A stretch of DNA of 33,081 nt from Candidatus Hodarchaeota archaeon (GTDB taxonomy: Archaea > Asgardarchaeota > Heimdallarchaeia > Hodarchaeales > Hodarchaeaceae), in NCBI GenBank assembly GCA_016840035.1, contig JAEOTC010000069.1:1-33081 (forward strand), written 5' to 3'. A program made the position numbers and the translations under genes. Shown here in pieces: positions 1,981-7,317 of the stretch (the first letter of the stretch is position 1; every line of letters starts with the position of its first letter). The notes below the pieces were generated by a model. The model worked only from the letters and a program-made list of their open reading frames with translations. It did no database searches and was not told where the DNA came from.

Positions 1981-2334
1981 ATGAGTGACTTTGAAGATTT
2001 AGATTTTGATCTTGAAGAAACAACAACTGTAAAGGCTAAAACCCCTGCACAGTCAAAAACACCCGTAACTGGGGCAACCTCTGGACCAAAGAAGAATGTT
2101 TTCTTTAAATCTACTGTCGGTCCTGAGAGAACGGAAAAACTCTCTGTTGGTGAAAATACACCTGTACGAGATGTTCGTGACACTTTGGCCAATATTTTTG
2201 GTCTAGATCCTGATGACTTCCACCTTTCTCATGCAGGAAGAACTCTTGACGAAAGTGCACCAATTGGAGATTATGGAATCGAAAATGGTGATGAAATCCT
2301 CTTAATTCCTCATTCAACCGCAGGTTGGAGGTAA
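1981..2334 (+). CDS. Ubiquitin-like modifier 1 (beta-grasp; pro-form ending STAG-WR; acidic N-terminal arm)
   Basis: Ub-like pattern: VRDVRDTLANIFGLDPDDFHLSHAGRTLDE..IGDYGIENGDEILLIP, compared with Ub QRLIFAGKQLED..LSDYNI. Located upstream of E1/E2/JAB/RING genes. Confidence 0.88.
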   Translation: MSDFEDLDFDLEETTTVKAKTPAQSKTPVTGATSGPKKNVFFKSTVGPERTEKLSVGENTPVRDVRDTLANIFGLDPDDFHLSHAGRTLDESAPIGDYGIENGDEILLIPHSTAGWR

Positions 2335-2336
2335 TC

Positions 2337-2368
2337 TGAGGATAACCTCACCTTTTCCCAATTTTTCT
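2337..2368 (+). terminator. Short hairpin plus pyrimidine tract after Ubl1
   Basis: TGAGG-ATAA-CCTCA (2337-2350) followed by ccttttcccaatttttct. Confidence 0.35.
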
Positions 2369-2583
2369 AGAAATAAAATGATCCTTTAAATTAAAATTAG
2401 TCTTAAACTCTTCAGTTCCAAGTAAGCAGCATTAATTCGCAGATTCAGATAGATATTTATGGAATGAGAACGATGAAAATGATAGTATTCTCTCTACATG
2501 TTTTCAGAAGTAAATCGGAATCTTCTGCAATAGATGAGTACTCTCCAAAGCTTATCGTGGAGGATACAAGGGAAGCTGTCATT

Positions 2584-2931
2584 ATGTTAGAAAATGAAGA
2601 GTTTATTGAATTTGAAGAAGAGGAGGAGGAACAGAATGATCCCTCAATCCAATCGAAAGTTCCACAATCTAAAACCCCAACTGGTGAACGAATTTCTCTA
2701 TTTTTTAGGTCAACAATTGGACCTGGTGAAAAACAGGAGAAATTAACAGTTGATCCAGAAATGTCTGTGCGTGAATTAGCAGAAACAATAGGTGAAATTT
2801 TTGCTTTAGACCCACAGGATTTTCACTTATCTATTAGTGGTCGAACATTGGACTCGGATGATGTTCTATCTAATTATGATCTCGAAGATGGGCTAGAAGT
2901 CCTAATAATCCCTGTAAGTACCGCAGGATAG
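2584..2931 (+). CDS. Ubiquitin-like modifier 2 (paralogue of Ubl1, ends STAG-stop)
   Basis: Clear paralogue: FFRSTIGP, EKLTV, IFALDPQDFHLSISGRTLD, LIIPVSTAG. ATG 2584 gives 115 aa, close to Ubl1's length. The ORF-track start at 2464 is probably over-extended. Confidence 0.88.
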   Translation: MLENEEFIEFEEEEEEQNDPSIQSKVPQSKTPTGERISLFFRSTIGPGEKQEKLTVDPEMSVRELAETIGEIFALDPQDFHLSISGRTLDSDDVLSNYDLEDGLEVLIIPVSTAG

Positions 2932-2956
2932 TCTTAATACTAGAGGAATAACCATT

Positions 2957-4195
2957 ATGACAAATTTCACGAGTAAAGCTCTTACAAAAGAAGAAAAACG
3001 ACGATTCGATCGACAATTTCGACTTCCTGGCTGGAATCAGGAAATCCTAAAGCGAAGCTCTGTTCTCATTGCTGGAATTGGAGGATTAGGAGTTGAAATT
3101 GCTAAAAATCTCGCTATGGTCGGTGTAGGGCATTTAATACTCGTGGATTTAGATACTATCGAATATTCTAATCTTAACCGGCAGATACTATTCATTGGAG
3201 CCCCAGAAGGGGCCTCCAAGGCAAAAATGGCTGCAAAGAGACTCAGAGAGATAAACCCATTTATCAAGATTGATGCCTATGATTGTCCTTTACAAGATAT
3301 TCCCCCTCGTATTTACGCCGATGTGGATATGTATATCGCTGGTCTCGACTCTATTGAAGCTAGATCAGAATTGAATCGACGTGCGATCCATAATCAAAAA
3401 TTTCTCATAGATGCAGGGACTGCAGTCTATAATGGGCATACATACGTAATTTCTCCTTTCACCAATGCGTGTTTGGAATGCGATCCTTTAACCGAACGTA
3501 ATCAAGACCAGCTTGGTGCATGTACCTTAGTAGGAAAACCTCGTAGACCCGCTCATTGTATTTTAAAAGGTCAGCTTCAATTCGAGAAAAAAAAGGGCAG
3601 ACCAGTAGATATCCTAAATTCAAAAGAAGTGAATTCTGTGGTTTCATTTGCTAATAATCTCTTGAAGGAATATTTCCCACAACATGAACCGTTCTCTGTG
3701 AATCAGGTGATACAGATAATTGACAATCACGAGCCAACAGTTATCACCATTAATTGTGTGATGGCATCACTTCAATCCCAAGAGGCAGTAAAAATATTAC
3801 ATCACCTACACAGTCCACAGTCTGAAAATCGTTTAGGCAATATCCAATTAAACTATCTAATATATAATGGATTAACGGGAAAATTTTACGAAATAGAAAA
3901 ACCCCGCAATCCGAAATGCGAAATGTGTGGCCAGGAACGAACACCATTATTCCAACTTAAGGTTAAACGTAAGTACCGTTTAACAAAACTAATTCAAAAT
4001 TTTTCTCAAGAGAAGAAGTATCCAATTGACTCCGAATTTCCTCCCATGATGTTTAGGATTGATTCTTCTGAACTCGGTGACATATCTTTAGACCAAACAA
4101 TCTCAGAGGCTGGTATAAGAGATTGTGAAACTGTTCTCGTGACTGGTTTTGATGATGGATCACAAATATATCTCACAATAAATATAGAAGGTTAA
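2957..4195 (+). CDS. Ubiquitin-activating enzyme E1 (ThiF/MoeB adenylation domain, UBA3-like catalytic Cys, probable C-terminal UFD)
   Basis: RFDRQ, GIGGLG, DLDTIEYSNLNRQ, catalytic C189 in CTLVGKPRRPAHCI, Zn-binding CLEC/CEMC, C-terminal ~85-aa Ub-fold-like region. Upstream GAGGA. Confidence 0.93.
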   Translation: MTNFTSKALTKEEKRRFDRQFRLPGWNQEILKRSSVLIAGIGGLGVEIAKNLAMVGVGHLILVDLDTIEYSNLNRQILFIGAPEGASKAKMAAKRLREINPFIKIDAYDCPLQDIPPRIYADVDMYIAGLDSIEARSELNRRAIHNQKFLIDAGTAVYNGHTYVISPFTNACLECDPLTERNQDQLGACTLVGKPRRPAHCILKGQLQFEKKKGRPVDILNSKEVNSVVSFANNLLKEYFPQHEPFSVNQVIQIIDNHEPTVITINCVMASLQSQEAVKILHHLHSPQSENRLGNIQLNYLIYNGLTGKFYEIEKPRNPKCEMCGQERTPLFQLKVKRKYRLTKLIQNFSQEKKYPIDSEFPPMMFRIDSSELGDISLDQTISEAGIRDCETVLVTGFDDGSQIYLTINIEG

Positions 4196-4201
4196 GAAAC
4201 A

Positions 4202-4729
4202 ATGTCAATTCGAATTAAACGCATTGCCGAGGATTATAATCAGCTTAAAACTCTTTACAAGCAGAAAACGATCAAACAGTTGAAAGCTTTTCCAGGCGAG
4301 AAGAAGAGTGTCGAACATATTGCAGTACTCCTTGAAGGACCAAAAGGTACACCATATCAGGGTGGGAAGTTCAAATTGGAAATTAAATTTGGGCCAAACT
4401 ATCCATATTCTCCCCCGTATGTTAGATTACATACAGCTATCTGGCATCCCAACTTTTGGCCGAAACCTGATGAATACAAGGGGAAACGCAATATCTGTCT
4501 TGGATTAGTAGATCCTGACTTAATAGGAAAACCACAGGGATGGTCTCCATCTAAAAACATTACTACGGTAATTTACTCAATTCTAGCAATGTTTAACATA
4601 GACGAAGCTTATACTAATCCCCACGATGTATTCAACAAGAAAGCTGCAATGGAATATCTAAAAGATAAGGGTAAGTTTAAAGAAAAAGCTCGGAAAATTA
4701 CCAAAAAATATGCAAAAAAGAAGTGGTAA
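4202..4729 (+). CDS. Ubiquitin-conjugating enzyme E2
   Basis: GPKGTPYQGGKF, YPYSPP, WHPN (H82-N84), catalytic C99, WSPS. Confidence 0.95.
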   Translation: MSIRIKRIAEDYNQLKTLYKQKTIKQLKAFPGEKKSVEHIAVLLEGPKGTPYQGGKFKLEIKFGPNYPYSPPYVRLHTAIWHPNFWPKPDEYKGKRNICLGLVDPDLIGKPQGWSPSKNITTVIYSILAMFNIDEAYTNPHDVFNKKAAMEYLKDKGKFKEKARKITKKYAKKKW

Positions 4730-4747: not shown

Positions 4748-5584
4748 ATGTCAACAGAAGGTGTTAGCATAATGCCAGAAAAAAAAGATTCTCAATCACG
4801 TAATCTATTTGAGCTTCTTCTTAGGGATACAGCAATGAATTATGATCCTGATAATTCCACTTTAACTTTAAAATTCCCAACCTCTTCTGAAACCAAAGCT
4901 CTTCCCGAAACAAAAGAAACTCTTAACTTAAAGAAGAATATATCACAATCTAAAGAAGCTGTCGAAGATATCGATGACTTAGACCCTGAAATCGATCCTG
5001 TTCGAGTAAAAATACAATTAAAAGCATATATTCGTCTTTGTCTTCATGCATTAAAGTATGCGCATTCATCCATTCCCCAATCTGAGTGGGTAGAAGTAAT
5101 TGGCCTCTTGACAGGTCATATAGAAAACGAAGATACTCCTCTTGCGTGTTTGGTGATAACAGATGCTTTTCCAGTGGGCCATGGAACGAATGTTAATGCT
5201 CAAATTGAGGACCCCCAGAGTATGGTTCGAGTTTTTAATGAAAGTAGAAAGAAAAACGAAATGATACTTGGATGGTACCATTCTCATCCTTCATATGGAG
5301 CATTCATGAGTTCAACTGATTACCAGACACAGGTACGATATCAAAGACTCGGAACAAAAGAGTCTCAATTATCAGCACCAATAGCACTTGTAATAGATCC
5401 AACTCGCATTTCCAGAAGGAGTTATGGATTTAAAATCTTCAGATTGAAAAAAGATTTGAAAAAATGGGAAGAACCTCGTTTTGAAGTTTTAAACTGCTCC
5501 CTAGAAAGTCTTCCGGAATTAATCAGCACCCTGCTACCTTTAGCAGAAGGAAAAACTATGTTCCTGGAATATGATTATGATTGA
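4748..5584 (+). CDS. JAMM/MPN+ metalloprotease (Rpn11/CSN5-like deubiquitinase or Ubl maturase)
   Basis: E116 in EVIGLL; GWYHSHPSYGAFMSSTD matches HxH-x7-S-x2-D; ALVIDPTR; ~85-aa N-terminal extension. Confidence 0.93.
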   Translation: MSTEGVSIMPEKKDSQSRNLFELLLRDTAMNYDPDNSTLTLKFPTSSETKALPETKETLNLKKNISQSKEAVEDIDDLDPEIDPVRVKIQLKAYIRLCLHALKYAHSSIPQSEWVEVIGLLTGHIENEDTPLACLVITDAFPVGHGTNVNAQIEDPQSMVRVFNESRKKNEMILGWYHSHPSYGAFMSSTDYQTQVRYQRLGTKESQLSAPIALVIDPTRISRRSYGFKIFRLKKDLKKWEEPRFEVLNCSLESLPELISTLLPLAEGKTMFLEYDYD

Positions 5585-5607: not shown

Positions 5608-6714
5608 TTGGTTGGAAGAAATGTCTACATCTCTGTGGTTATCACTGGATTGGTCTTTGCCTTCTTAAGCCAAATTGTGAATCCAGAAAGTTTCATGTCA
5701 ATAACTCTTCTTTATTTTACTCTTGTTTTGGTTTTACTTATTAAATTAATAGATGAATGGCGTTATTATCGTTCGTATAATGCACCACTAGCTTCAGCTA
5801 TTTTTATTAGTATTCCGGCGATGATTGCTATCGGGGGTAGTATCATAGCATTGAATGCTACTTTAGGGGATTCTAATGATATTCTCCAGACTTTGTTTTT
5901 AGAAATGAATCTAAATTTAGAATTTCTTCAGTTGGATTCATTCTATCTTTTCTTAAACCTATTTGGAGCCCTCCTATGTACACCATTTTATGTGGTTTTA
6001 GGTATATTATTTCGTCGATACTACTCTGAAAGATACCCAAATATCTTCATATTCAGAAAGAGATTCCCTTCTGAGTCGATTATTGCATTGAATGTCATTA
6101 TTCTTTTAATTTTCTCTCTAATTTGGATGGAACAAAAAGCCATCGAAATTTCCGCCTTTATTTTCGTATTATTTTGTACAATCATCTTTATTCAGAATTA
6201 TATTCTAAAGATTGTGATTGTTCCATTTAGACGGAGTACTAGAACCACTCCGCGAGTAATACGATCACAAAGTAGAACAATCAGGTCTCCACAAGCATCG
6301 AGGGATGCTAGAAGATCTATTTCTGCGTCATCAAATGTAACACCAAGAGAGAACAGATTAAGTAGATCCTCACAACAATCGACTATTCGTGTAGCTCCTC
6401 CAGTGCAGATACCACGTAGAAGGAAAAGGAAACTTACTCCCGCATTAATTGCTAGTCTGACACCTGCGGGTCAGCATTTATCAAAAGATGATTTTCGATG
6501 TATATTCTGTTATGAGTTTCCAACCGATAAACCAGTAGTTATTTGTCCTCATTGCAGGCATCCAAGTCATGCAGATGAGTTTCAAAAATGGCTCGATGTC
6601 GCTAATATTTGCAGTCGGTGTAATAAACCAATTAATAATATAAAAATGATCAGAATTTCAGGTGCTAGTTATCAGAAAATCATTCAAATGTTTCAAAAGA
6701 AGTACAAAAATTAA
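5608..6714 (+). CDS. Multi-pass membrane protein with C-terminal RING-like finger (putative membrane E3 ligase)
   Basis: About 6 hydrophobic segments in aa 1-205, an Arg/Ser-rich linker, then CIFC-x11-CPHCRHPSHADEFQKWL-x5-CSRC (6499-6621). TTG start downstream of GAGGT. Confidence 0.82.
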   Translation: MVGRNVYISVVITGLVFAFLSQIVNPESFMSITLLYFTLVLVLLIKLIDEWRYYRSYNAPLASAIFISIPAMIAIGGSIIALNATLGDSNDILQTLFLEMNLNLEFLQLDSFYLFLNLFGALLCTPFYVVLGILFRRYYSERYPNIFIFRKRFPSESIIALNVIILLIFSLIWMEQKAIEISAFIFVLFCTIIFIQNYILKIVIVPFRRSTRTTPRVIRSQSRTIRSPQASRDARRSISASSNVTPRENRLSRSSQQSTIRVAPPVQIPRRRKRKLTPALIASLTPAGQHLSKDDFRCIFCYEFPTDKPVVICPHCRHPSHADEFQKWLDVANICSRCNKPINNIKMIRISGASYQKIIQMFQKKYKN

Positions 6715-6732: not shown

Positions 6733-7317
6733 ATGGCTATACGGCATACAATTGCTTGGTTCATCATGCTTATTGGCGTATCAGCTACTATTTTCTTTTT
6801 TATCCAAAATGAGGATAATCTAGCCCTAAATACACTGTTTATTTCGATTTATACCGCTATTACTATTCTTTATTTTCTTCGAATTTTTTATTATGTAGAT
6901 CATCATGCCACACTCAACGAAATTTACTTTCTATCTCTCGCCAATATCATTCCACTTGTAATAATACTAATAAGCCCATTCTTACCTATTTTTGAGGAAG
7001 CTTTATTGGATTTGGCGATTACTATACAGCCTTCTAATGAGCTCGTTGAGCTTCATATTGCAGTACCTTCATTGTTGGCATTTCCATATCTTATAGTCTC
7101 AACTGCTTTATTGATTCGAAGTTTTACTCGTTATCAGTTTATACGAATAACTTCTCAGTCGGAAAGAGGCCCCTCGGCTGAATGGACTGCAATATTTACT
7201 TTTTTCATCTTTGGATTTCTATTTCTCTTTGCAGGTATATTTGCTTCGGATCTCCTTGGAATTTTATACGGGATCTTTTTCATTTTCTCCGGAATCGGAT
7301 TTTTTTTGGGAAAATAA
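6733..7317 (+). CDS. ~6-TM membrane protein, apparent RING-less paralogue of the E3 membrane domain
   Basis: 18 nt after the RING gene on the same strand. Shares colinear motifs with it (see findings). Confidence 0.75.
   Translation: MAIRHTIAWFIMLIGVSATIFFFIQNEDNLALNTLFISIYTAITILYFLRIFYYVDHHATLNEIYFLSLANIIPLVIILISPFLPIFEEALLDLAITIQPSNELVELHIAVPSLLAFPYLIVSTALLIRSFTRYQFIRITSQSERGPSAEWTAIFTFFIFGFLFLFAGIFASDLLGILYGIFFIFSGIGFFLGK

Follow-up and report, generated by a model that had tools for sequence, protein, structure and literature searches.

Two ubiquitin-family modifiers ending in Ala-Gly, and their labile C-terminal tails, at the head of a Hodarchaeales operon

The closest described counterpart of the operon reported here is the ubiquitin operon of Caldiarchaeum subterraneum, in which a modifier is clustered with a ThiF-type E1, a UBC-type E2, an Rpn11-like JAMM protease and a RING-type protein (PMC5654768, PMC6043591). 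Its ubiquitin (CsUb) is made with a propeptide of nine residues at the C-terminus. Rpn11 removes this propeptide, and the E1 does not activate CsUb as long as the propeptide is present (PMC5654768). This protease cuts only its own ubiquitin. It tolerates the exchange Gly78Ala and also cuts the Gly77Ala variant, i.e. the Ala-Gly state, but much more slowly, and it is blocked by bulky residues just past the cleavage site (Cys79Glu, Gly80Trp) (PMC6043591).

Similarly, eukaryotic polyubiquitin, SUMO, NEDD8, ATG8 and UFM1 are made as precursors: behind the conserved reactive glycine they carry a short cap, which varies between species and is taken off by a protease. In UFM1, a single terminal glycine stands behind a small hydrophobic residue (Val-Gly) and the cap is Ser-Cys. 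A Gly-Gly end is usual for conjugatable ubiquitin-like proteins (Ubls) and not defining, UFM1 and ATG8 being without it. The order Hodarchaeales, to which we turn here, is among the closest known archaeal relatives of eukaryotes. Tandem Ubl repeats are known from bacterial polyUbl operons of type 6e, where two or three ubiquitin-like domains in tandem adjoin E1, E2 and JAB genes (Iyer, Burroughs and Aravind 2006, PMC1779556). In the literature that we searched, no description of tandem Ubl repeats or of an Ala-Gly end was found for Asgard archaea. A recent study (PMC12962969, 2026) reports Asgard 'Ufm1 homologues', some of them with several hit regions, which may be the family with the terminal motif S-T-A-G (STAG) described below.

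An operon headed by two Ubl genes

The window, i.e. the whole stretch of 33,081 nucleotides that was analysed, harbours an operon with all genes on the + strand in the order Ubl1, Ubl2, E1, E2, JAMM and a membrane protein with a RING-like finger, the two Ubls standing at its head. Public proteins nearly identical to the Ubls carry the labels Hodarchaeales, Hodarchaeota or Heimdallarchaeota. The features are:

1981-2334, + strand: Ubl1 gene, 117 aa
1981-2085, + strand: Ubl1 residues 1-35, disordered arm, first acidic, then Lys/Thr/Pro
2089-2310, + strand: Ubl1 residues 37-110, beta-grasp domain
2311-2325, + strand: Ubl1 flexible tail HSTAG
2323-2325, + strand: codon of Ubl1 Gly115, predicted mature C-terminus (conservation cliff in alignment A1; HMM alignment to ubiquitin)
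2326-2334, + strand: two-residue cap Trp-Arg of Ubl1 (TGG AGG) and TAA stop
2335-2583, + strand: spacer between Ubl1 and Ubl2, 249 nt, with a T-rich and a TATA-like block, both conserved
2584-2931, + strand: Ubl2 gene, 115 aa from the conserved start, ending in VSTAG and directly in TAG (2929-2931)
2932-2956, + strand: non-coding spacer before E1, with a Shine-Dalgarno-like site AGAGGA
2957-4195, + strand: E1-like activating enzyme, 412 aa (Pfam ThiF, 176 bits)
4202-4729, + strand: E2 conjugating enzyme, 175 aa (Pfam UQ_con, 97 bits)
4748-5584, + strand: Rpn11-like JAMM metalloprotease, 278 aa, motif HSHP...SSTD (Pfam JAB, 60 bits)
5608-6714, + strand: membrane protein with a RING-like finger (weak zf-RING matches)
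6733-7317, + strand: membrane partner protein

Ubl1 exceeds the cut-off of the Pfam ubiquitin family (PF00240; 33.9 bits, cut-off 25.4), while Ubl2 stays below it with 21.7 bits; the two proteins are 48% identical over 101 residues. An AF2 model of Ubl1, built with 24 homologues, displays a beta-grasp with a pLDDT of about 90 at residues 37-110 and a disordered arm (1-35) and disordered last residues. Its best Foldseek match is Caldiarchaeum ubiquitin complexed with its Rpn11 (TM 0.81, rmsd 1.6); further fold matches are ISG15, ubiquitin and SUMO, and ISG15, ubiquitin and CsUb score at Z 13-15. The profile alignment to ubiquitin places Ala114 on Gly75 and Gly115 on Gly76 (profile position 108 at Ub L69). 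Both Ubls thus possess an exposed or exposable glycine at the position of Ub Gly76, as conjugatable (type I) Ubls do, and Ala-Gly is found throughout the family, no member of which ends in Gly-Gly. Judged by their sequences, Ubl1 and Ubl2 are ubiquitin-type modifiers in which the di-glycine is replaced by Ala-Gly; the earlier note is supported in this respect, including its placement of the reactive end at the glycine. Both paralogues are under strong purifying selection, with dN/dS values against sister species of about 0.02 (Ubl1) and 0.01-0.04 (Ubl2) at a dS of about 1.

The mechanical open reading frame of Ubl2 begins at 2464, whereas the conservation among orthologues begins at ATG 2584 (MLENEEF; elsewhere MSENE[ED]F), and the sequence upstream of this ATG is not conserved between subclades. 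Across four sister species, the spacer at 2335-2583 reaches a mean column identity of 86%, compared with a dS of ~1 in the flanking genes. Its T-rich block (at about 2348-2368) and its TATA-like block AGATAGATATTTATGGAATGA (at about 2441-2467) are candidates for a terminator and a promoter, respectively. A duplicated promoter ahead of both Ubls was also considered and given up, as the pairwise alignment A2 yielded nothing convincing. The short spacer before the E1 gene contains two more stops in the frame of Ubl2, TAA at 2935-2937 and TAG at 2941-2943.

From Ubl2 onward, 6-25 nt separate each gene from the next on the same strand, and the ubiquitin-like, ThiF E1, UBC E2 and Rpn11-like JAMM genes are clustered in the way that characterizes operons of the Caldiarchaeum/Asgard type. 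This neighbourhood of E1, E2 and JAMM suggests that the E1 would adenylate the terminal glycine of Ubl1 and Ubl2. The best solved relatives of the E1 are UBA1, UBA3 and SAE2, and not UBA5; that of the JAMM protease is Caldiarchaeum Rpn11 (6FJV/6FNN). For JAMM residues that might make room for the alanine, the comparison covered the SSTD/SPTD motif. The membrane protein at 5608-6714 scores 14-15 bits with zf-RING, below the cut-off of about 27. The likeness to Caldiarchaeum includes the C-terminal propeptide, which CsUb shares with Ubl1. By contrast, the modifiers described here end in Ala-Gly and not in Gly-Gly, their caps comprise 0-2 residues as opposed to nine in CsUb, there are two paralogues, each with a disordered N-terminal arm of roughly 35 residues, and the E3 candidate is a large membrane protein, whereas Caldiarchaeum has a small RING protein.

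Among eukaryotic modifiers, UFM1 resembles Ubl1 in its single glycine behind a small hydrophobic residue and in the length of its cap. A further likeness to human UFM1, an 'IP' five residues ahead of the glycine, can serve as a lead only. The Pfam family Ufm1 (PF03671) matched neither Ubl at E <= 0.1 and nothing in the genome at E <= 10, and no UFM1 structure is among the best 50 fold matches listed (Foldseek and VIA), although absence from such a listing does not in itself exclude a family. Given these results and an E1 that is nearer to UBA1/UBA3 than to UBA5, we rejected a membership in the UFM1 family; the E2 of the operon, a canonical UQ_con protein, likewise sets the two systems apart. 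The bacterial polyUbl operons differ in that their Ubls, E1s and E2s belong to other, bacterial families, whereas the archaeal set analysed here is eukaryote-like.

An invariant end and variable caps

Matches to the family were found in 26 of the 41 related genomes searched. For 24 of these relatives the gene ends were read for both paralogues, and 44 of 44 genes end in STAG. When the search was widened to the class, the family was present in 55 of 83 genomes, and 32 further loci all end in S-[TI]-A-G, followed by nothing or by K, C, I, RGY, AI, AY, RGAL, A, WI, NSL, W, HY or AGRVA. The complete metagenome homologues (n = 69) show the same picture: 67 have STAG, and the remaining two have SSAG and SIAG. 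Tails are missing from about a third of these homologues, most others carry two residues and a few carry 4-12. Altogether, S-T-A-G is nearly invariant in about 150 Asgard relatives and the conservation ends exactly at the glycine. The class yielded 77 distinct genes from representative genomes: 49 are without a tail and 28 have tails of 1-5 residues that share no common sequence. The next in-frame stop past the first one is a median of 10 codons away in these genes, and the tails are much shorter than random read-on would produce (Mann-Whitney p = 3e-12, a value that overstates statistical independence since the counts come from related genomes). The stops are kept close to the glycine, yet no particular sequence characterizes the cap.

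The distribution of caps within the genus bears on the suggestion of the earlier note that Ubl1 and Ubl2 form a two-tier system, in which Ubl1 is inactive until released by JAMM and Ubl2 is always ready. Such a selected design would account for the state 'Ubl1 capped, Ubl2 mature' that the window shares with three sister species, for the shortness of the tails and for the purifying selection on both paralogues. Moreover, exactly one paralogue is capped in 13 of the 17 species of the genus and both in none, which might reflect selection for asymmetry, although few independent events lie behind the pattern. The role is not tied to a paralogue, however. Ubl2 is the capped one in nine species (with the tails I, YY, SIN, FDF, IYY, Y, IK, L and SSNRS) and tail-less in eight, while Ubl1 is capped in four and tail-less in 13 (TGA in nine, TAA in four); neither paralogue has a cap in four species, and both are capped in one species from another family (K and VW). 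Hence the comparison of orthologues, which the earlier note had called for, bears out the Ala-Gly end and not the tail pattern, which swaps between the paralogues from species to species and whose sequences are not conserved.

The Gly-Gly modifiers of the same genome provide a control. Two further Ubl-E1 pairs are encoded there, both of the Gly-Gly type (..TTGG-TVK and ..IKGG-stop). In the orthologues of the first, the Gly-Gly ubiquitin of the genus, ITRTTGG is invariant and the tails vary (TVK, TNR, IVR, MVR, ST, LS, FA, LT, FPN, SATRR, NK, H, VDD, KR), with none in six species. As this single-gene ubiquitin is equally labile, the lability of caps is not special to the twin Ubls, and short caps that change readily are common to the ubiquitin-type genes of this lineage in general. 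Together with the probably recent origin of the Ubl1 cap (see below), these observations make a selected division of labour between the two paralogues an unlikely explanation.

Codon histories of the two tails

The ends of the two genes read ACC GCA GGT TGG AGG TAA (Ubl1, 2317-2334; T-A-G-W-R-stop) and ACC GCA GGA TAG TCT TAA (Ubl2, 2920-2937; T-A-G-stop-S-stop), exactly as had been described. The amber codon of Ubl2 (2929-2931) is one base from TGG, and a TAA stands two codons further on in both genes. This correspondence is real as a one-base difference but does not represent homology, as the nearest Ubl2 orthologues have the stop TAA directly after the glycine and read GGA TAA TCC CAC.. or GGT TAA ATT ATT... 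The second TAA, which the earlier note took as a possible relic of an ancestral two-residue propeptide, is CAC or ATT in these orthologues and therefore records no such propeptide, and TGG is a poor candidate for the ancestral state of TAG, since the TGG of Ubl1 itself appears to derive from an orthologous TGA stop. A recreation of the propeptide by amber read-through likewise found no support: TAG terminates 13 of the 77 family genes like any other stop, and a genome search for PylS gave a best match of 27.9 bits against a cut-off of 178, for which reason pyrrolysine-type amber decoding was rejected. Stops make up ~6% of the codons over all frames in the window, which has a G+C content of 36%.

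Behind the Ubl1 glycine, TGG occurs only in the window and in three sister species (G014, G002, G004), where it is followed by AGG or AAT and then by TAA, so that the cap is WR in the window and WN in sister species. The other 13 Ubl1 orthologues of the genus have a stop at this codon, TAA in the deeper species and TGA in most. In the maximum-likelihood tree, the four TGG species form one clade (99/98 support), which is nested among TGA-bearing orthologues. From these codons, the WR cap looks like a stop-loss extension, with a change from TAA over TGA to TGG as the simplest history. The same route is supported by a metagenome protein with the end STAG-WGK, whose close kin read TGA GGT CAG TAA there. 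Among the first tail codons, 14 of 28 are a single step away from a stop versus a background of 36%, a weak enrichment that is not significant (p = 0.09); this signature was dropped, and the argument is carried by the orthologous TGA/TGG series. We also dropped the idea of selection on the tryptophan, based on the retention of W and TAA in all four sister species, because the spacer downstream is also conserved as a whole and the retention says little either way.

The contrast between TAG and TGG depends on a single base, and the genome assembly is fragmented into 293 contigs, which might raise the suspicion of a sequencing or assembly error in the amber codon (at position 2930, where the earlier note had asked for a check) or in the TGG at 2326-2328. 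But the three sister species also stop after the Ubl2 glycine and also have TGG in Ubl1, and P0001, a protein from an independent metagenome with 96% identity to Ubl1, ends in STAG-WR. An artefact is thus extremely improbable.

Fused precursors and the role of the JAMM protease

The two Ubls of the window are encoded by separate genes and not by a fusion of the polyubiquitin type. Relatives of Ubl1 and Ubl2 nevertheless occur in head-to-tail repeats, as in the eukaryotic precursors: at least 14 distinct genes (12 clusters, L035 and the L036/P0052 lineage) join two or three Ubls of the family. The 12 clusters comprise three triples (372-380 aa) and nine doubles (229-266 aa). STAG is present at every junction except for one SQAG, and 0-3 small residues lie between this motif and the acidic arm of the next repeat. 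The last repeat has no cap or ends in FF, FI, VL, KY, MV, LY, FL, IY, AKAC(F) or TTRKITSA. Unlike eukaryotic polyubiquitin, the fused archaeal repeats are divergent, and each has its own acidic arm. One triple-Ubl frame is present at full length in two assemblies. The 3' ends of the two L035 repeats agree at 76 of 76 nt, and the assembly has a gap of 100 N there. On a contig of 169 kb, a di-Ubl gene (L074) heads the same operon, followed by a small ORF, E1, an inserted gene, E2, JAMM, a membrane protein of 413 aa and a partner of 195 aa, the last two in the same order as in the window.

In ISG15 and FAT10, the first domain has lost the reactive motif. The retention of STAG at internal junctions argues, unlike the situation in these two proteins, that the fused forms would be cut into monomers by a protease acting after Ala-Gly, which would in turn support the protease proposed by the earlier note. 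Of the maturation scheme put forward there, it stands that Ubl2 is born mature and that Ubl1-WR almost certainly needs trimming: given the mechanism of the E1 and the finding that pro-CsUb is refractory to its E1 (PMC5654768), Ubl1 would have to lose WR before adenylation. The JAMM protease of the operon is the obvious candidate, and the STAG junctions of the fused genes and the Caldiarchaeum precedent both point to a cleavage after Ala-Gly. Wherever the contig of a relative is long enough, it carries the JAMM orthologue at a distance of 2-3 kb from the Ubls, and among these relatives are eight species (G017, G001, G006, G022, G023, G030, G032, G040) in which all Ubls of the family are tail-less. 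As JAMM is kept where every Ubl is born mature, its conserved role is not the trimming of precursors alone, and deconjugation is probably its core function.

The tryptophan directly behind the Ubl1 glycine might be cut poorly, if the block of Caldiarchaeum Rpn11 by bulky residues past the scissile bond (PMC6043591) is a guide. Taken further, the tail might be kept altogether, and Ubl1 of the four-species clade would then be non-conjugatable and either work without covalent attachment or serve as a decoy that occupies E1 or JAMM. We regard this as improbable, even more so than a selected division of labour. Ubl1 retains the invariant STAG in this clade at its dN/dS of about 0.02, and the many relatives with F, Y, W or L as the first tail residue would all have to be inactive as well; an isopeptidase pocket, moreover, should in any case have to accept a long lysine side chain.

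The reading that we prefer, with a probability of roughly 70%, is that Ubl1 and Ubl2 are paralogues within a modifier of the ubiquitin family that is spread across Asgard archaea, has Ala-Gly in place of Gly-Gly at its end and carries disposable caps, the state of the window being a by-product of drift under selection on length. The residues encoded after the glycine, at which the E1 would act, would represent a short cap free of sequence constraints, most likely removed by the Rpn11-like JAMM. With trimming at hand, a shift of the stop by a few codons downstream would be nearly harmless, so that caps, nearly neutral in themselves, could come and go. In the lineage of the window, the Ubl1 stop would have changed from TGA to TGG, with read-on over two codons to TAA giving WR; Ubl2 has no cap there, and Ubl1 would need one more maturation step.

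A broader reading is possible, though we hold it only tentatively. Hodarchaeales would already make ubiquitin in the eukaryotic style, with poly-precursors, variable caps and maturation by a deubiquitinase; a third modifier would be kept orthogonal to the two Gly-Gly systems by S-T-A-G, and the recurrent state with exactly one of two paralogues capped would be selected, the role being free to swap between them.

For the biology of these archaea, the coincidence of TGG and TAG and the two-tier interpretation derived from it should no longer be treated as a designed mechanism, and their value is mainly negative. The family would bring together several hallmarks of eukaryotic ubiquitin biology in a simple operon, i.e. 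a reactive glycine concealed by a changeable cap, precursors of several fused Ubls, a JAMM protease dedicated to the system and several orthogonal modifiers per cell. Finally, an Ala-Gly end beside two Gly-Gly systems would offer a clean test of how the specificity of E1 and protease reads the tail of a modifier.

The N-terminal arm of the Ala-Gly Ubls

Both ubiquitin-like proteins (Ubls) of the window begin with a conserved arm:

1981-2085, + strand: conserved N-terminal arm of Ubl1
2584-2700, + strand: conserved N-terminal arm of Ubl2

The layout is the same in the two proteins, with Met-Ser followed by an acidic/aromatic block (DFEDLDFD, ENEEFIEFEE) and then by K-S-K-T-P..S-K-T-P. In an alignment across the Asgard Ala-Gly Ubl family, F4, P22 and K26 of the arm are almost invariant. 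The structure model predicts the arm to be disordered, and fused poly-Ubls retain it as a linker. Its F-x-x-L/F core with acidic flanks resembles short linear binding motifs.

Regions flanking the Ubl genes

Two further features precede Ubl2, and a third is found in relatives with fused Ubls:

2335-2583, + strand: Ubl1-Ubl2 spacer, with a T-rich block and a ATATTTATGGAATGA block
2464-2583, + strand: open stretch of the Ubl2 frame, 5' of the conserved start
L035 8497-8709 and L074 7773-7982: small ORF between fused poly-Ubl and E1, conserved in both relatives

The spacer is better conserved than synonymous sites (86% column identity versus a dS of ~1, four species). Its T-rich block lies just 3' of Ubl1 and the ATATTTATGGAATGA block ~120 nt upstream of Ubl2; Ubl1 may form a separate transcription unit. 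In most members of the genus, the 40-80 codons 5' of the conserved Ubl2 start are free of in-frame stops, and the sequence of this open frame shows no conservation from one subclade to another. Gene callers will tend to over-extend the Ubl2 start.

The small ORF of L035 and L074 encodes 69-70 aa and has no counterpart in the window, where the gap between Ubl2 and E1 is just 25 nt. In a further poly-Ubl relative, L036 (GCA_046703885.1, JBJKSQ010000312), an in-frame TGA at 2527-2529 falls within the first repeat of the di-Ubl (KNVYF*STIG), where every relative has K, Q or R; candidate explanations are a sequencing error, recoding or decay into a pseudogene.

Longer Ubl proteins and additional modifier systems

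Nine proteins of 270-560 aa from Loki, Hel, Thor and Heimdall records (P0120, P0134, P0146, P0151, P0179, P0193, P0123, P0160, P0181) carry at their C-terminus a Ubl of this family ending ..IPSSTAG, preceded by a zinc-ribbon and coiled-coil domain (YNCPKC..H) or by a Roadblock/LC7-like domain. Such large N-terminal cargo on a conjugatable tag would be unusual.

The window's own genome holds two more Ubl-E1 pairs, at loci L001 (C184) and L004 (C112): an 80-aa ubiquitin ending TTGG-TVK adjoins a 344-aa E1, and a 112-aa Ubl ending IKGG-stop adjoins a 416-aa E1, with a 262-aa zinc-ribbon protein also alongside. Together with the Ala-Gly Ubl system of the window, a single cell thus has three modifier systems with differing tails.
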